Positions 14,906 to 27,342 of a stretch of DNA of 29,240 nt are shown piece by piece. The position numbers and the translations under genes are program-made. The stretch is from a virus: the UHGV virus genome UHGV-0275034, one strand, 5' to 3'. Under the pieces are notes generated by a model that was not told where the DNA came from, made no database searches, and saw nothing but the letters and a program-made list of their open reading frames with translations. The first letter of the stretch is position 1; every line of letters starts with the position of its first letter.

Positions 14906-16324
14906 ATGCCGATTCAGCAACTTCCGCTTATGAAAGGTGTCGGCAAAGACTTTCGAAACGCCGACTATATCGACTATCTGCCAGTGAATATGTTGGCTAC
15001 ACCCAAAGAAATCCTGAGCAGCAGCGGATATCTTCGCTCATTCCCGGGCATTGCCAAACGCTCTGATGTAAACGGTGTATCGCGCGGCGTCGAGTACAAC
15101 ATGGCGCAGAGTGCTGTTTATCGCGTGTGTGGTGGCAAGCTGTACAAAGGAGAAAATGCAGTCGGTGATGTTGCCGGAAGTGGTCGCGTATCAATGGCAC
15201 ATGGTCGGACATCTCAGGCTGTAGGCGTTAATGGTCAACTGGTCGAGTATCGCTATGATGGCACGGTTAAAACCGTCTCAAACTGGCCTGCAGACAGCGG
15301 ATTCACTCAGTATGAGTTAGGTTCGGTTCGCGACATTACGCGCTTGCGTGGGCGTTATGCGTGGTCAAAAGACGGCACCGATTCATGGTTTATCACTGAC
15401 CTTGAAGACGAATCGCATCCTGACCGATACAGCGCACAATATCGTGCCGAGTCTCAGCCTGACGGCATCATTGGCATCGGAACATGGCGAGACTTCATCG
15501 TCTGTTTTGGTTCATCGACGATTGAGTATTTTTCCCTGACTGGTGCAACCACCGTTGGTGCCGCTTTGTATGTCGCACAGCCATCGCTGATGGTGCAGAA
15601 AGGTATTGCCGGAACCTATTGCAAAACGCCATTCGCTGATTCCTATGCGTTCATCAGCAATCCGGCAACAGGTGCTCCGTCTGTGTATATCATCGGCTCC
15701 GGTCAGGTATCACCAATCGCCAGCGCGAGCATTGAGAAAATACTACGCTCCTACACTGCTGATGAACTTGCTGATGGCGTGATGGAATCGCTGCGATTTG
15801 ATGCGCATGAACTGCTGATTATCCACCTTCCGCGCCACGTCCTCGTGTACGACGCATCTTCAAGCGCCAATGGTCCGCAATGGTGTGTACTGAAAACAGG
15901 CTTGTATGACGATGTGTACCGCGCTATCGACTTCATTTACGAAGGCAATCAGATAACGTGCGGCGATAAGCTGGAATCGGTGACCGGGAAATTGCAATTC
16001 GATATCAGCAGCCAGTACGACAAGCAACAGGAACATCTGCTGTTTACTCCTCTGTTCAAAGCGGATAACGCCAGAGTGTTCGATCTTGAGGTTGAATCGT
16101 CAACTGGCGTTGCGCAGTACGCCGACCGCCTGTTCCTCTCTGCAACCACTGACGGCATAAATTACGGACGTGAGCAGATGATTGAACAGAATGAACCGTT
16201 CGTTTACGACAAACGTGTTTTGTGGAAGCGAGTCGGGCGCATCAGGAAAAATGTTGGCTTCAAATTGCGCGTTATCACGAAGTCACCTGTCACTCTGTCA
16301 GGCTGCCAGATAAGGATCGAGTAA
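14906..16324 (+). CDS. Tail hub protein (P22 gp10 homologue)
   Basis: 472-aa product, the same length as P22 gp10, in the gp4-gp10-gp26 order. Confidence 0.8.
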
Positions 16325-17277
16325 TGGCTGATTCTAATCTCAATGAGCCGGTAATCATCCAGGCTACACGGCTAGACACATCAGTCCTTCCACGCAATAT
16401 CTTCTCGCAGTCATATCTGCTGTACGTTATCGCACAGGGTACTGATGTTGGTAACGTGGCGAACAAGGCCAACGAAGCAGGGAAGGGGGCTTATGATGCA
16501 CAGGTGAAGAATGATGAGCAGGATGTCACCCTTGCAGACCATGAATCCAGAATTGAAGCTGCTGAAGCAACTCTCATCAATCATGAACATAGAATCGCAG
16601 CAGCGGAAAGCACTCTTGCAGATCATGAAACAAGGATTACGGCTGCTGAAACAGAGCTGGCTGATCACGAGACGCGAATTGCTGCCAATGAATCTGAGTT
16701 AGCAAACCATGATGCGCGCATAACTCAGAATACAACCGATATCGACGCACTTGATACCAGGCTCACAGCGGCAGAAGGAAGTATTTCGACGCTACAGAGC
16801 ACAGTTGGTGATCACTCAACAAGAATATCTGCGCTTGAGTATGCCACCACGCGCAAGAAATCAGAGGTTGTTTACTCAGGAGTATCTGTAACCATCCCGA
16901 CAGCGCCGACTAACCTTGTTAGCCTGCTGAAAACGCTCACGCCGTCATCCGGCACGTTGTCACCATTCTTCGACACCGTTAACAACAAGATGGTTGTGTT
17001 CAACGAGAGCAAAACCTTGTTCTTCAAGCTGTCGATTGTCGGGACGTGGCCCAGCGGAACCACCAACAGGTCAATGCAGCTAACCTTTTCCGGCTCTGTT
17101 CCTGACACGTTGGTCAGCAGTCGTAATGCGGCGACAACAACCGACAACATCCTGTTAGCTACGTTCTTCAGTGTGGATAAAGACGGCTTTCTTGCCACAA
17201 ATGGCAGCACGTTAACCATTCAGTCAAATGGTGCGGCGTTTACTGCCACAACCATCAAAATCATTGCGGAGCAGTGA
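16324..17277 (+). CDS. Tail needle (P22 gp26 homologue) with repeat-rich coiled coil and extended C-terminal domain
   Basis: Start at ATG 16324 ([18 protein letters not shown]..., overlapping the gp10 stop as TAATG) matches the P22 gp26 N-terminus; the ORF-track start at 16222 lies inside gp10. Confidence 0.85.
16531..16740 (+). repeat. Five tandem 42-nt (14-aa) imperfect repeats inside the tail-needle gene
   Basis: Peptide units [14 protein letters not shown] / [14 protein letters not shown] / [14 protein letters not shown] / [14 protein letters not shown] / [14 protein letters not shown] read directly from the translation. Confidence 0.8.
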
Positions 17278-21733: not shown

Positions 21734-22219
21734 CTACCTGATATTACTGCTACTGTTGCATGTTACCGTGTTTCCAAATCCTGAATTGCAGTTTGTATAT
21801 GTGTCAACGCGTGTTGGGTAAGGTTGAGTTATAACAGGCTGGCGCGCTTTTTGCTCGATCGCTTGCATTGTGTTTACAGCCTGATAATTCAATAAAGCCT
21901 GCTGGAATGCTTGGCTTTGCGCTATTTGTTGGGCTTGTTCTTGGCTTTGTAATTGAACATAAAGATTCTGAAGTTCAAGTCTTGCCTGTGTGTCACTTAT
22001 CTTGCCTTCATCGACACCTTGCCCGAGCATCTTCGCAGCAAGGACATACAGCTTAGGTGTTGGTGCTGATGCCATGCGAGAGTCGTTCTTCAAGCTGGCA
22101 TCAAGGCAATTAGCCATATCGCTAAGCTTTGGATAGCGTTGCTCGCAACTTGCCTGATAGTCGCTTACTTTTGCGCACCCAGCCAGCAGAAGCGGGATAA
22201 TTAACAGTGATTTTTTCAT
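21734..22219 (-). CDS. Predicted lipoprotein (162 aa) with Gln-rich central region
   Basis: Start set at the internal ATG (complement of 22217..22219), which has AGGAGA about 10 nt upstream; signal peptide plus lipobox MKKSLLIIPLLLAGC; convergent with gp16. Confidence 0.7.
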   Translation of the reverse strand: MKKSLLIIPLLLAGCAKVSDYQASCEQRYPKLSDMANCLDASLKNDSRMASAPTPKLYVLAAKMLGQGVDEGKISDTQARLELQNLYVQLQSQEQAQQIAQSQAFQQALLNYQAVNTMQAIEQKARQPVITQPYPTRVDTYTNCNSGFGNTVTCNSSSNIR

Positions 22220-22253
22220 ATAATTAACTCTCCTTAGTTTTGCGCAGGATACC

Positions 22254-22619
22254 ATGAAAAAAGTTAACATTGGAAACGTACCAAAGATGCTAGTACCGCT
22301 CTTTGAGAGCGGTACAATTGTGTTTTGTAGAGACTTTCCAGAATGGCAACGCCTGCATCAAAAACTTGGCGTTGACGTGCATGACTCGGACGCCAACGGA
22401 GCGTCTCATACAATGAGTAGCGAGAATGGTGTTTTGCATGTGATAGGCGTGTTCAATGGCAAACTATCTACTATTGCCCATGAGTGCGCTCACATGGCAT
22501 TCGATATCTGCTCAAGGGTCGGTGTTGATGTTGAACCAGGAAGAGCCAACGAGACTTACTGCTACTTAATGAGCAGGCTTGTTGAGTTCTGCGAGCGACA
22601 TATCAAAAAGCCGGAGTGA
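22254..22619 (+). CDS. Small protein (121 aa) carrying an HExxH motif (HECAH)
   Basis: ATG 22254 with AGGA upstream; divergent from the lipoprotein gene with only 34 bp between the two start codons; motif IAHECAHMAF suggests a zinc metallopeptidase-like fold. Confidence 0.55.
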   Translation: MKKVNIGNVPKMLVPLFESGTIVFCRDFPEWQRLHQKLGVDVHDSDANGASHTMSSENGVLHVIGVFNGKLSTIAHECAHMAFDICSRVGVDVEPGRANETYCYLMSRLVEFCERHIKKPE

Positions 22620-22902: not shown

Positions 22903-22926
22903 AACCCACCGTCAGGTGGGTTTTTT
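22903..22926. terminator. Bidirectional hairpin terminator overlapping the mnt stop codon
   Basis: Stem AACCCACC/GGTGGGTT with loop GTCA, flanked by AAAAATT on one side and TTTTTTG on the other. Confidence 0.6.
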
Positions 22927-23163
22927 GTACAAATCCTTCAGCGTATCAAACACCATCTTCTTAACAAGTTCGGACTGCTCATCAGCGATGCGTTCCGCAT
23001 CGTCTCGATAGCCTGAAATTTTGGATGGCTTTGATACAGCATCAGTAACTATCTGAACTAATTCTGAATTAAGAGAGCGGCCATTGGATTTGGCTCGCTG
23101 TTTTAGTTTTTCCTTTAATTCGTAAGGTAGCCGCAGATTAAATTGCGGGTCATCTCTTCCCAT
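22912..23163 (-). CDS. mnt: Mnt repressor (ribbon-helix-helix, immI region)
   Basis: 83-aa product that matches P22 Mnt as I recall it, especially the C-terminal GYRDDAERIADEQSELVKKMVFDTLKDLYKK. Confidence 0.85.
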   Translation of the reverse strand: MGRDDPQFNLRLPYELKEKLKQRAKSNGRSLNSELVQIVTDAVSKPSKISGYRDDAERIADEQSELVKKMVFDTLKDLYKKPT

Positions 23164-23309: not shown

Positions 23310-24746
23310 ATGACAGACATTACAGCCAATGTTGTAGTCAGCATGCCTTCGCAACTCTTCACTATGGCTCGTTCTTTTAAAGCCGTAGCTAATGGAAAGA
23401 TTTATATCGGTAAAATTGACACTGACCCAGTAAATCCTGAAAACCAGATTCAGGTTTATGTAGAGAACGAAGACGGCTCTCATGTTCCCGTTTCGCAACC
23501 AATCATCATTAACGCCGCTGGTTACCCTGTATATAACGGACAGATTGCCAAATTCGTAACTGAGCAAGGCCATTCTATGGCTGTTTATGATGCGTATGGT
23601 GCACAGCAGTTCAAATTCCCAAATGTGCTGAAGTATGACCCGGATCAGTTAAGAGTAGTTTTGACTGGACAGTCTGGTGATGGACTTAAGAATTTTTATG
23701 CTGGCTCAGGATGGACTGGTTCAGATGCAGCTGGTGACAATATTTATAACAATGAAACTATCATATATAAAAATGCTACACGACAGAGATTCTCCATACC
23801 AGAAACACCAATTCCAGATCCCATTATTTGGCTGGAAAAAATTAGTTCTGCAACTAGGGATGACGGCATCAAACGATGGGATCAGGGGGTAATTTATAAC
23901 TCTTTGCGCAAGGTGTCAGGAAGTGCATATACATGCACAACTACAAGTGTTGCTAAGCATGAGGGAGGGAATGGGCATTCAATTGGTCACCACATGCGTG
24001 GAGAATCAAGAAATCCGCAAGCCGAAACATGGGGGGGGTGGTCATATGGTGCAGTATTAGGAGATGCAGTGCAGAATGGAGCGATTAGCACTATTGCACA
24101 TGAATTTAATCTGAATAATCGAGGTCCCGATAAAGGATGGATGGAGAATGCACTGCAAGGATCTGTAAGAGGGTTGGTATGTGTAACTCAGGATAAAAGC
24201 AATCCAGTAACACAGATGATTACCATCGGAAGAGGGAGTGAAGCTCCAAATGGTTATATCTGGACAGGAATGTTGTTTAGAGGTAATTCTATTTCCACTC
24301 CAACAGAGGAACTAACCGAGGTAGGTAATGGCGAATACATCAGACTTGAGGGATCTCTATCATCTGGAGCTGCAAACGGCATTAGATTTAGAACAAATTA
24401 TTTTAGGAGTGGAATTTCATTTTCTGAAGCTAGATTTTCAAACAACTGCGCAATTTTGATGGGCGACAATCAACGAATTACGGTAGGAACGGGCCCGGCA
24501 AATACAACACATTTGAGTTTCAACAGGGCTGAGAACTGGGCTAACTTCAACAACTTAAGAATACGACTTAATGGCAATCAAGTTATTTCAGAGAGGAGGA
24601 CGGGATGGGGATCGCCAACCGGCACCGTATCCCGAGCAGCATTTAACTCTGGAACAATAACTCACGAAGATTTAGCAAAGGTAGTTGCAGCATTAATTCA
24701 GGACTTACATGCTTCAACCGGGCATGGATTAATTGGTTTAACTTAA
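23310..24746 (+). CDS. Tailspike / receptor-binding protein (P22 gp9-like N-terminal head-binding domain, divergent short distal domain)
   Basis: First roughly 115 aa closely parallel the P22 gp9 N-terminus ([11 protein letters not shown] ... [13 protein letters not shown][13 protein letters not shown] ... LKYDPDQ); the remainder is unrelated and AT-richer; total 478 aa. Confidence 0.8.
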
Positions 24747-24758
24747 CAGGACAATAAA

Positions 24759-24944
24759 ATGGATAAGCAAACTATTCAAAATATCATGCAGTTTATGCTT
24801 CGCGTAAATCTTAGCGGTCATGAAGTTCCTGCTTTTAATTCTTCAATGAATGCATTACAGGCTGAATTAGATCGCGAAAATGACCAGCCACTCCAGCGAG
24901 TACTAAATGCTGCTCACAATGAACCTGTTACGGAGAATGATTAA
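24759..24944 (+). CDS. Small hypothetical protein (61 aa) downstream of tailspike
   Basis: ORF with a weak RBS, tightly linked to the next small gene. Confidence 0.4.
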   Translation: MDKQTIQNIMQFMLRVNLSGHEVPAFNSSMNALQAELDRENDQPLQRVLNAAHNEPVTEND

Positions 24945-24945
24945 A

Positions 24946-25152
24946 ATGAAAACAGAAAGCGGTGCTTTCAAATTTGACGGTGGAGAGGTTAAAGGAATTA
25001 ACAGCATTGCCATTATTGAGGTGCGCGGTAACGGGTGGGGCGCTGGTTTTTATTTTAAGCCAAATACTGCCGTTAAAGTCGATGGTAATAAGCCTGATCT
25101 GAACGAGTTTCGTGATTCCTGCGCATTGTCGGTAATGACTCCAACTTACTGA
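24946..25152 (+). CDS. Small hypothetical protein (68 aa) downstream of tailspike
   Basis: ATG 24946 with GGAGA 9 nt upstream; begins 2 nt after the stop of the preceding small ORF. Confidence 0.45.
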
Positions 25153-25307
25153 TAGTGTTTTATATTCAGATAATGCCCGATGACTTTGTCATGCAGCTCC
25201 ACCGATTTTGAGAACGACAGCGACTTCCGTCCCAGCCGTGCACCAGGCTGGTTCAGAATCATGTTCTGCTGATTTTGTCCGGCGGCAGAACGCAATTTGC
25301 CAGAGTG

Positions 25308-25433
25308 ATGGGAAGGGCATTAATCACGGATGATGGTGAAGCGATCGAAGTGGAGGCGGCGGAAGAGGTGGAGGTGATGTGGCGTGTTACGTACTTCATC
25401 AACAGCGCGCTGCAGGATGGCGTGGTGGTGTGA
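25308..25433 (+). pseudogene. Coding-like fragment resembling the 3' end of a protein gene (41 codons from an internal ATG)
   Basis: Open frame ending ...VMWRVTYFINSALQDGVVV*, with no plausible full-length gene upstream (in-frame stop at 25209); a degenerate second copy lies at 25532..25678. Confidence 0.25.
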
Positions 25434-25688
25434 TGGGTGGCATTACCCCACCTTTTCATCAATCCAGTCCGCCCACCACTGCAGCATGTCTCTGCATTTA
25501 TCGTAGTTGATGCATCACTATCACCCTGTAATGGCTTATTACTGGTTTGCATACAGGTAGGCATGAACAGATACCTACACATGAAGATGGAACTAGTCCG
25601 GATGCGATATTTTTGGTGATCACGTACATCATCAACGAAGCGCGTTATGTTGAGTTTTATGACTGCCAAGTAATGTGAAAATTGCGAT

Positions 25689-25712
25689 GCGTACCAAATT
25701 GTGTACCAAATT
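25689..25712. repeat. Tandem arm-type repeats GCGTACCAAATT / GTGTACCAAATT (putative integrase arm sites)
   Basis: Two adjacent 12-bp copies; three more related copies lie at 25939..25985, just upstream of int. Confidence 0.6.
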
Positions 25713-25938
25713 AAAATCATAAACCATGAAACCCTTACTCATGGCTGTTCTCAGGCTGGGTGCGTGTAATCGTGAAAGAGGAAGGTAGGTTGTTTATCTG
25801 TGTCTGTCATTGTCTAGCATTGTCCACTGTAGTTAATTAACTGTCTGTTATAACTCGAAAAACAACCATTTTTTCACCTGAGTATGTCTACGAACGTCAA
25901 ATATAGTTGTTTACTGTGCGCTGTTGTCCATGTGATAT

Positions 25939-25985
25939 TGTGTACCAGATGTGTACCAAACTATTATTTCTGAGCGTACCAAATA
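25939..25985. repeat. Three arm-type repeats (TGTGTACCAGA, TGTGTACCAAA, GCGTACCAAAT) immediately upstream of int
   Basis: Same GTACCAaA core as the copies at 25689..25712; together they bracket about 230 bp. Confidence 0.6.
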
Positions 25986-25991
25986 TTATTT

Positions 25992-27170
25992 ATGGCTATA
26001 AGCGACACAAAACTGCGTACTATTTATGGTAAACCATATTCGGGCCCACAAGAAGTGGCTGATGCCGATGGCCTCAGCGTACGAATTTCACCGAAGGGGG
26101 TCATCCAGTTCCAGTACCGCTATCGCTGGCATGGCAAGCCTAATCGACTTGGGCTTGGTCGATACCCATCCCTGTCTTTGAAGGATGCCAGACAGATCAC
26201 TGCTGACTTGCGAAAGCTCTATTTCTCAGGAACGGATCCACGCACCTATTTTGAAGAGAAGGTGGAGAACTCCATGACGGTCGCCCAGTGTCTCGACTAC
26301 TGGTTCGACAACTACGTCTCTACAACTCTCAGAGAAAAGACCCAGGCACTTTACCGATCAACGGTTATGAAGCGCATGCATGACGCCTTTCCTAATCGTC
26401 CGGCATCTTCTATCACGGTTAAGCAATGGGTTGACCTGCTTACCGAAGAAGAAAGAGATAATCCACGCCGAGCAAGGCAGGTGCTAAGTCAACTAAGATC
26501 AGCAATAAGTTGGTGCATGCGGCGTCAGTTGATAGATAGTTGCGCAATTATGAGCATCCAACCAAGGGACTTCGGCTCCCGCGCTGAGGTAGGGGATCGG
26601 GTACTGTCGTATCACGAACTGGCTAAGATTTGGCTTGCTATTGAAAGAAGCCGTGCGTCTACGTCAAATAAGCTCCTTCATCAGATGCTTATGCTGTGGG
26701 GGGCGAGGCTCTCAGAGCTTAGGCTGGCAACAAAGACAGAATTTGACCTGCTGGACAACGTATGGACCGTACCGAAAGAGCATAGCAAGATGGGTAATGT
26801 TATCCGCCGTCCAATCTTCGAACAAATTAAGCCTTTTCTCGAAAAAGCCATGACAACGTACAATGATGTTCTTTTCCCTGGAGAAGACATAAACAAACCG
26901 ATCAGCATCGCTGCAGCCAACCGATTCGTAAATAGAATAAGGGGAGGGATGGATCTGGGTTACTGGCGAACACATGATTTCAGAAGAACGCTTGTTACAC
27001 GTCTGTCCGAGATGAATGTCGAGCCTCATGTTACTGAGCGAATGCTCGGTCATGAACTTGGCGGGATAATGTCAGTATACAATAAACACGACTGGATAGA
27101 GGCTCAGCGCAAAGCGTATGAGCTTCACGCTGATAAATTGTTCTGGCACATCAGGAGCATTTCTGATTAA
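25992..27170 (+). CDS. int: Tyrosine site-specific integrase (P4-type)
   Basis: 392-aa product with catalytic-domain signatures (RLSELRL, HDFRRT, LGHELGG ... SVYNKH); lies adjacent to the arm-type repeats. Confidence 0.9.
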   Translation: MAISDTKLRTIYGKPYSGPQEVADADGLSVRISPKGVIQFQYRYRWHGKPNRLGLGRYPSLSLKDARQITADLRKLYFSGTDPRTYFEEKVENSMTVAQCLDYWFDNYVSTTLREKTQALYRSTVMKRMHDAFPNRPASSITVKQWVDLLTEEERDNPRRARQVLSQLRSAISWCMRRQLIDSCAIMSIQPRDFGSRAEVGDRVLSYHELAKIWLAIERSRASTSNKLLHQMLMLWGARLSELRLATKTEFDLLDNVWTVPKEHSKMGNVIRRPIFEQIKPFLEKAMTTYNDVLFPGEDINKPISIAAANRFVNRIRGGMDLGYWRTHDFRRTLVTRLSEMNVEPHVTERMLGHELGGIMSVYNKHDWIEAQRKAYELHADKLFWHIRSISD

Positions 27171-27342
27171 CGCCACCGTTAAGAATCCACCCTTCAACAG
27201 CTTCACGAAGGTATGATTTGGGGTGGGTTCTGACTGGCTTCGGAAATCCGTGTCGTTTGGTATAGTTCCAGATTGTCTGACGTGATGAAACACCGAGCTT
27301 GTTCATCACTTCTTTCTCAGGAATCAGGCTGGTATCGGTCAT
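27151..27342 (-). CDS. AlpA-family excisionase / DNA-binding protein
   Basis: 63-aa product with the AlpA-like HTH pattern (LGVSSRQTIWNYTKRHGFPKPV); GGAGA 6 nt upstream; 3' end overlaps the int 3' end by 20 bp, convergently. Confidence 0.7.
   Translation of the reverse strand: MTDTSLIPEKEVMNKLGVSSRQTIWNYTKRHGFPKPVRTHPKSYLREAVEGWILNGGVNQKCS

Follow-up and report, generated by a model that had tools for sequence, protein, structure and literature searches.

A P22-like tailspike with a widely shared distal receptor-binding module, followed by two small genes that are candidates for helper proteins

In phages P22, Sf6 and HK620 the tailspike (gp9, gp14 and gp9, respectively) begins with a head-binding domain of Pfam family PF09008, and its gene, by its position a determinant of host range, stands at the end of the late operon past mnt; in P22 the order is mnt-arc-ant-9. 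Elsewhere, the gene for the receptor-binding protein (RBP) is followed immediately, in the same orientation and in tight coupling, by a gene for an assembly protein, such as Tfa in lambda, P2 and Mu or gp38 and gp57A in T4, the last being a small, acidic, helical chaperone. Here we analyse a locus in the virus genome UHGV-0275034, using a stretch of 29,240 nucleotides (hereafter the window), in which an open reading frame (ORF) of 478 codons (23310..24746, plus strand, in the ORF list) shares the listed properties of the P22-type tailspikes and is followed by two small genes, ORF1 and ORF2, placed as the assembly genes are. We think it probable that this is the tailspike of a P22/Sf6-like temperate podovirus, in which the distal two-thirds have given way to a mobile receptor-binding cassette that includes the two small genes as putative helpers. 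Modular tailspikes with downstream accessory genes are known; the present case also involves a very large RBP family without a name and two uncharacterised families of mini-proteins.

The sole Pfam match of the 478-residue protein is Head_binding (PF09008), over residues 1-113, and its sequence matches in the PDB, to Sf6 gp14 (7sg7) and P22 gp9 (2xc1 and 8tvr), are confined to residues 1-120, a segment nearly identical to residues 1-120 of Sf6 gp14 (7sg7, E 3.2e-65). An earlier note, made from the letters of the sequence, had claimed that only the first 115 residues or so resemble gp9 and that the remainder is shorter than its counterpart in P22, and both statements hold. The distal part measures 363 aa compared to about 550 aa in P22 gp9 (chain length 666-667), and when its profile was set against full-length P22 gp9, the hhalign probability was 0.4%, with no detectable relation to the beta-helix body of gp9. 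The same note had described the distal part as AT-richer, which it is not: GC content is 0.425 there and 0.429 in the head-binding part, the gene as a whole lying slightly under the window mean of 0.472, and base composition was discarded as a clue to foreign origin. The genomic setting is that of a P22/Sf6-like phage, with genes for gp10, the needle, a gp14-like protein, gp7, a gp20-like protein and a 615-aa ORF all upstream of the tailspike. A Mnt/Arc-family gene marks an immI-like region just before the tailspike gene, as in P22, and the latter stands past this region at the end of the late operon.

An exhaustive profile search, for which the query was a trimmed 18-sequence alignment of the distal domain (alignment A2), found relatives in 3,670 representative clusters at E ≤ 1e-3, 2,066 at E ≤ 1e-10 and 139 at E ≤ 1e-30; a word-indexed search returned just 16-22 clusters. 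Hundreds of family members can be aligned with the distal part over its full length. No entry in Pfam, PHROG or NCBIfam names the domain, across its length it matches no well-characterised tailspike family, and literature searches found neither a characterised member nor an account of the small genes. Within the family, the N-terminal adaptors include Tail_spike_N (of the CBA120 TSP1/gp66 type), Phage_tail_fib (the N-terminus of P2-type tail-collar fibres), the T7 fibre N-terminus, the lambda Stf N-terminus, collagen repeats and Head_binding, and some members carry an extra SASA or GDSL esterase domain. Counterparts of the window's distal domain stand on Tail_spike_N-type (PF18668) adaptors with identities of 71-94%, including one in a lambdoid prophage that follows a TipJ gene. 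The siphovirus Kagunavirus LM02P1, which is virulent, has a copy that is about 65% identical, and the PF18668-type occurrences as a whole, LM02P1 among them, span 64-94%. In three virulent Phapecoctavirus myoviruses (nieznany, tuntematon and ECML-183-2) the protein named 'tail spike' carries the domain at about 28% identity. Remote members with about 43% identity were found in a phi29-like podovirus contig (L030 in our numbering of related loci) and in an actinobacterial prophage of Georgenia sp. AZ-5 (L026). In E. coli the window's receptor-binding domain (RBD) is rare, being present in 5 of 5,426 complete genomes, with one further partial version that is lambdoid. Exchange of RBDs between Kagunavirus and Lederbergvirus phages has been documented (PMC10408124). 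The distribution on P22-type, lambdoid/Kagunavirus-type and other adaptors gives good support to the view, already put forward in the earlier note, that the distal domain is a swapped receptor-binding module. Partial profile matches fall into two sets, covering profile positions of about 10-290 and about 290-359, which suggests that the family is built from two separable modules, a body and a tip.

The annotation of this gene in public genomes gives no hint of such a module. RefSeq records labelled by the Prokaryotic Genome Annotation Pipeline (PGAP) mark only its first 120 or so codons, as a pseudogene fragment 'missing C-terminus' (NZ_CP063492, NZ_CP074031 and NZ_CP151017; 4001-4355 in L001 and 4001-4369 in L002 and L003). 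Neither the window nor the RefSeq genomes that bear the label have an interruption in the 478-codon frame, so that about 1.1 kb of coding sequence goes unannotated. We take the pseudogene label to be an annotation artefact, arising because no model of the distal family exists.

The earlier note had also drawn attention to a GW-x-x-PTG segment near the end of the protein. This segment, TGWGSPTGT at residues 431-439, aligns with a homologous motif in gp26, the tail needle of P22. Comparison of alignment A2 with gp26 gave an hhalign probability of 97% (E 1.1e-10, gp26 residues 160-232), the distal-family profile found the P22 and HK620 gp26 entries of the PDB at E 2e-4 to 5e-4 (hmmsearch), and phmmer aligned the tailspike tip to gp26 residues 163-191, VGGKKVVGARQTGWTAATGTANKGVFDAD. 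The tip also matches PHROG 1219, 'tail needle' (E 1.7e-4), and its predicted structure, modelled by AlphaFold2 (AF2) with a predicted local distance difference test score (pLDDT) of 87-97, matched 2poh and 5bu8 with Foldseek probabilities of 0.92-0.99. Tailspike and needle share the signature VxGxRxTGWxxxTGT, followed by a helix and a terminal HGLI(D/G), and the terminal HGLIG tail is conserved family-wide. On these alignments and models, the last 60 or so residues of the tailspike are homologous to domains III-IV of the gp26 tip, with a predicted triple beta-helix segment, a helix and HGLIG. In P22 these domains comprise residues 141-233, and in 2013 the P22-type tip was stated to have no database matches beyond P22-like phages (Leavitt et al. 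2013, PMC3741392). It is now seen to form the C-terminal module of a broad RBP family in many phage types, and the link supplies an evolutionary source for a domain that had been regarded as exclusive to P22-like phages. Unlike in P22, where the tip belongs to the central needle, the module in the window caps the tailspike, and neither a needle-tip-like end nor the two small genes at this position are features of the P22, Sf6 and HK620 tailspikes (judged on the P22 map). The phage's own tail needle (16222-17277) bears a different type of tip, the Sf6-type knob PF16532. In nieznany, gp226 (L006 3602-4960) stops early, ending in ELARYVKNYLML followed by a stop codon where its relatives have ELARYVKKVTDALITHGLIGPA, either through a frameshift or sequencing error or through true loss of the terminal HGLIG tail.

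For the body, an AF2 monomer model of the distal part, built from a 150-sequence alignment, had a pLDDT of 82 (60-89 across the body in 10-residue blocks) and showed an extended chain with almost no intrachain strands or ladders. A comparison of the body with the PDB found no significant match to any solved tailspike, nor was a right-handed parallel beta-helix glycanase domain akin to those of solved tailspikes recognised. The extended monomer is what would be expected of an intertwined trimer, in which respect it resembles the HylP hyaluronate lyases of streptococcal phages, which form a triple-stranded beta-helix, a recognised but rare depolymerase class (PMC12491483). HylP did appear among the weak Foldseek matches, with six entries over about 300 columns, all insignificant (E 5-9, probability ≤0.04); the window protein shares no sequence similarity with these enzymes and gives no sign of lyase activity. 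An intertwined beta structure of three chains, running on into the gp26-like triple beta-helix, would be a coherent reading. Polar residues conserved family-wide (K177, D191, K201, H228, R230, W244, Y246, E265, D295 and E342) could form an active or binding site, or could make inter-chain contacts.

ORF1, which starts 12 nt past the tailspike stop codon, encodes a small, acidic protein with a conserved core of about 38 residues, IMQFMLRV..G.EVPAF...M.AL, in which I-M-x-F-M-x-R-V-x-L-x-G-x-E-V-P-A...M..L-Q is invariant. A profile search found homologues in 82 clusters, the few with a named source being from Escherichia and Enterobacter. By tblastn, ORF1 lies directly after a homologous RBP gene in nieznany (gp225), tuntematon, ECML-183-2, LM02P1 and the Aeromonas phage AsC4_1, and P22-like and lambdoid prophages, as well as several metagenomic phages, likewise have it just behind a family RBP. 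The window's ORF1 is 68% identical to nieznany gp225 over the whole protein, while the cognate RBPs are only about 28% identical. In the Aeromonas phage and in metagenomic phages, homologues persist at 38-55% amino acid identity where DNA homology is gone. Relative to the window copy, the ratio of nonsynonymous to synonymous change (dN/dS) in the core is 0.07-0.15, with synonymous sites near or at saturation (proportion of synonymous differences, pS, 0.54-0.93), and ORF1 is therefore under strong purifying selection.

Synteny was counted by running hidden Markov models (HMMs) of the RBP domain, ORF1 and ORF2 on 26 loci that hold an ORF1 homologue. A family RBP ends just upstream of ORF1 in 25 of the 26, and an ORF2-family ORF follows just after ORF1 in 22. 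Both genes thus have the placement typical of chaperone genes, directly downstream of the RBP gene and conserved with it, and the claim of the earlier note that two small ORFs accompany the tailspike extends to unrelated phages, in which they are conserved and syntenic with the same RBP family. Starting instead from distant family RBPs, all seven that were examined have an ORF of 39-93 aa within a few nucleotides downstream. Three of these ORFs are ORF1 homologues (L028, 39 aa; L029, 59 aa; L031, 52 aa, E 6e-18); the other four, among them those of the Georgenia prophage and the phi29-like phage, have no detectable similarity to ORF1 and look helical or coiled-coil-like by eye. The layout of an RBP and a mini-gene extends well beyond enterobacterial phages, the host of L026 being actinobacterial. 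In AsC4_1 only the last 120 or so residues of the RBP are common to the family, yet ORF1 and two ORF2 copies are kept, and it is therefore the C-terminal third of the RBP that the small genes accompany. Within the cassette, a sequence resembling a ribosome-binding site (AGGA or GGAG) precedes each small ORF, and no plus-strand terminator lies between the genes. Fusion of the RBP and ORF1 by stop-codon readthrough (24744-24761) was considered, as the two share a frame in the window with TAA and four codons between them, and was rejected because their frames differ in L005, L006, L008 and L010.

ORF2 would be 81 aa long if read from 24907; the ATG at 24946, 1 nt after ORF1, gives 68 aa. The shorter reading is right, because homologues begin at the equivalent of 24946, with GGAG 11 nt upstream. 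These homologues are nieznany gp224 (90 aa), ORF22 and ORF23 of AsC4_1, a 74-aa ORF in L029 and a full-length, 94-aa copy in L015 and L016. In the window the gene is cut short by the end of an IS1 element: its own sequence stops at 25130, so that some 62 of 94 codons remain and about 33 are lacking, and the last six codons (VMTPTY) and the stop are derived from IS1. The earlier note was thus correct that ORFs of 61 and 68 aa follow the tailspike, both of them conserved, but the second is an IS1-truncated rather than an intact gene. The fragment has the terminal inverted repeat and transposase-coding sequence of IS1 and thousands of IS1 matches, and RefSeq marks 'IS1 family transposase, incomplete' at the same site in NZ_CP063492. 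A second, very divergent type of ORF2 (80 aa, ending PYATIDC) replaces the first in strains PK12, 19KM1803 and E3. Since both types co-occur in L029, we regard them as paralogues, ORF2a and ORF2b; the family is Cys-containing and variable in type.

Gene content and order across these loci show a three-gene mobile cassette, comprising the distal module of the RBP, ORF1 and ORF2, which temperate and virulent phages of podo-, sipho- and myovirus type have exchanged. The head-binding domain is of the standard kind that docks the trimer on the tail. In our proposed explanation, the distal module would bind a surface polysaccharide, perhaps also cleave it, and in this way set host specificity. The O-antigen is the most likely target, because in relatives a GT2 glycosyltransferase gene, absent from the window, has moved between P22-like and lambdoid prophages together with the RBP, ORF1 and ORF2 and lies in the slot of conversion genes. 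The RBP would be a trimer whose extended, probably intertwined beta body folds from the gp26-like C-terminal tip. ORF1, and ORF2 where intact, would be co-transcribed and translationally coupled with the RBP and would act on its conserved C-terminal third as dedicated folding or trimerisation helpers, probably helping to assemble or cap the trimer tip and filling the slot held by tail-fibre assembly proteins in other phages. ORF1 is like gp57A in being small, acidic and probably helical; unlike Tfa, gp38 and gp57A, to which ORF1 and ORF2 have no sequence similarity, its core spans only about 38 aa, far smaller than Tfa. We infer the chaperone or modifier role of the small proteins from gene position only, and on that footing the two genes are good candidates for new tailspike helper proteins.

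Several observations weigh against this explanation. Neither ORF1 nor ORF2a or ORF2b matches a known chaperone family, or any other entry, in Pfam, PHROG, NCBIfam or the PDB. In L025, the exception among the 26 loci, the ORF1-like gene sits upstream of an unrelated tail fibre of 1,172 aa with, by eye, an S74-type chaperone end. Co-variation of ORF2 type with RBD type was looked for and rejected, the same RBD being found with ORF2a or ORF2b. ORF2 is dispensable in some phages, because LM02P1 and L024 have ORF1 and no ORF2, and the lineage with the IS1-truncated copy is found in several strains, so that either ORF2a is not essential or the prophages that carry the truncated copy are defective. 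As for the body fold, some family members have a sub-threshold pectate-lyase-like start motif, which would suit a conventional right-handed beta-helix better than an intertwined fold. Any enzymatic activity is conjecture drawn from the conserved charged residues.

Among other explanations for the small genes, we consider it unlikely that ORF1, ORF2 or both are virion parts that stay on the gp26-like spike tip as a cap or adhesin and touch the receptor, as gp38 of T2 and T6 stays on its fibre. The synteny that speaks for a chaperone speaks equally for such a component, the HGLIG tail could be its docking site, and the cysteines and variable type of ORF2 fit an exposed protein. However, ORF1 is extremely conserved across very different RBPs and from Escherichia to Aeromonas hosts, and it therefore fits better as the partner of a conserved structural element than as a receptor-contacting adhesin, while ORF2 is missing or truncated in some phages. 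Less probable still is that the small genes are 'morons' for lysogenic conversion or superinfection exclusion, acting on the host surface or on incoming phages from the slot between tailspike and integrase. In P22-like phages that slot does house O-antigen conversion genes (P22 gtrABC, Kapi1), and in temperate relatives the small genes adjoin the GT2 gene. A conversion role is nonetheless disfavoured because the pair follows homologous RBPs in the tail clusters of virulent phages (nieznany and AsC4_1), for which lysogenic conversion would be meaningless, and Kagunavirus keeps ORF1; in addition, no signal peptide or membrane segment is evident in the sequences of the small proteins, and the genes for these are co-oriented and translationally coupled with the RBP gene whereas GT2 is divergent.

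We give very little credence to the idea that ORF1 is maintained chiefly for its DNA, which would serve as a homology arm for recombination on the downstream side of the cassette, the protein being irrelevant. Nucleotide homology between the window and the PK12, 19KM1803 and E3 loci does stop at about 24872-24874, exactly where the conserved ORF1 core ends, and for other E. coli phages it has been suggested that RBDs recombine preferentially at conserved DNA motifs in their flanks (PMC10408124). A purely DNA-level role is disfavoured because purifying selection acts on the protein, the core being kept while synonymous sites have diverged, and because homologues persist where DNA homology has been lost. 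The two roles are not exclusive and can coexist in ORF1. The conserved DNA motif reported downstream of E. coli phage RBPs was itself considered as a possible ORF1 and set aside, as it is a 20-nt terminator (PMC10408124). That the tailspike is a decayed remnant followed by chance ORFs in degraded DNA seems to us scarcely credible. PGAP keeps only about 120 codons as a pseudogene fragment and the locus has been hit by an IS1 insertion and deletion, but the full frame is unbroken in every labelled genome as well as in the window, the distal part aligns along its length with its many relatives and is modelled well by AF2, and ORF1 is under selection. Returning to the helper-gene explanation, a bolder form of it, which we put forward tentatively and think doubtful as a whole, is that ORF1 and ORF2 are a new, widespread class of partners of an unrecognised RBP superfamily whose trimer is nucleated or capped at the gp26-like tip. 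The body of about 280 residues would then have a novel fold, perhaps an intertwined triple beta-helix, with a conserved catalytic site (K177, H228, R230, E265 and D295) acting on surface polysaccharides, and the P22 needle tip would be a copy borrowed from this general RBP tip module.

RBPs decide which bacteria a phage can infect, and their swapped parts are used in host-range engineering and in making depolymerases. With a family thousands strong left unnamed, and mislabelled in RefSeq, host-range predictions silently miss it. If the small genes are indeed needed, expressing or transplanting these RBPs without them would fail, and knowledge of the three-gene cassette would enable such work.

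Table 1. Positions of the tailspike domains, the small genes and neighbouring features (window coordinates unless a related locus is named)
Feature	Position	Strand	Remarks
Mnt/Arc-family repressor gene	22912..23163	-	Pfam Arc E 2.8e-22, Repressor_Mnt E 2.2e-18
Head-binding (tail-attachment) domain, P22/Sf6-type	23310..23648	+	tailspike residues 1-113; PF09008 E 3.6e-65
Distal module, body	23655..24557	+	tailspike residues ~116-416; large unnamed family
Tip module, gp26-like	24558..24746	+	tailspike residues ~417-478; contains TGWGSPTGT, ends HGLIGLT
ORF1, 61 aa	24759..24944	+	conserved partner gene of the RBP family
ORF2a', 68 aa, truncated	24946..25152	+	kin to a conserved gene of 74-94 aa
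IS1 terminal fragment, ~110 bp	25131..25241	-	starts with inverted repeat GGTAATGACTCCAACTTA; truncates ORF2a
HumD/UmuD-like ORF, 3' remnant	25239..25433	+	intact version is a 104-aa ORF ending the cassette in relatives
GT2 glycosyltransferase copies	L002 5900-7081; L004 5033-6214; L008 4448-5629; L029 5669-6850	-	

Downstream of the small genes, intact loci have ORF2b, the reverse-oriented GT2 gene, a 79-aa ORF and the HumD-like ORF, in that order. The last gives an NCBIfam match to the HumD N-terminus, and in the window the ORF at 25275..25433 is identical at 50 of 52 residues to the C-terminus of its counterpart in L002 (7496..7810). Because this 3' part is the next recognisable sequence after the IS1 end, the IS1 event deleted ORF2b, GT2 and the neighbouring genes in addition to cutting ORF2a after codon 62 or so. 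The GT2 protein of the temperate relatives (393 aa, PF13704, E 1e-8) is a candidate O-antigen-modifying conversion protein. Its gene is like P22 gtrABC, Sf6 oac and the Kapi1 conversion cassettes in lying between the tailspike cassette and intS/argW; unlike gtrABC or the acyltransferase cassettes, it is a single gene. Adjacency of the cassette to intS and argW, as seen in relatives, is normal for P22-like phages that integrate at argW, in which attP lies between int and xis (Kapi1 preprint).

In the window, the stretch 25131-25990 is a patchwork of the IS1 end, the HumD remnant to 25433, a stretch like the end of intS from about 25437 and an AT-rich junction. A second, intact integrase gene follows (25992-27170, plus strand; Arm-DNA-bind_3 and Phage_integrase), then a small overlapping ORF (27151-27342, minus strand) that is AlpA/Xis-like by eye and has no Pfam match, and early genes from 27420 (minus strand). 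It looks as though the phage has exchanged one integration module for another. The integrase and early genes of the window match prophages that adjoin sbcB in other E. coli genomes, and the IMG/VR contig L013 has identical proteins for the three ORFs. No tRNA gene was found in the window. The position of the late-gene end beside the int end suggests a circularly permuted phage or viral contig.

Two further ORFs lie at lower coordinates than the Mnt/Arc-family gene. One, of 178 aa (21734-22270, minus strand), has a lipoprotein-like start, MKKSLLIIPLLLAGC, belongs to PHROG 6067, a family without assigned function, and stands at the position of P22 sieA; it may be a superinfection-exclusion gene. 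The other, of 121 aa (22254-22619, plus strand), belongs to PHROG 1365, likewise without assigned function, and contains an HExxH-like motif, IAHECAHMAF, so that it could encode a small metallopeptidase-like protein.

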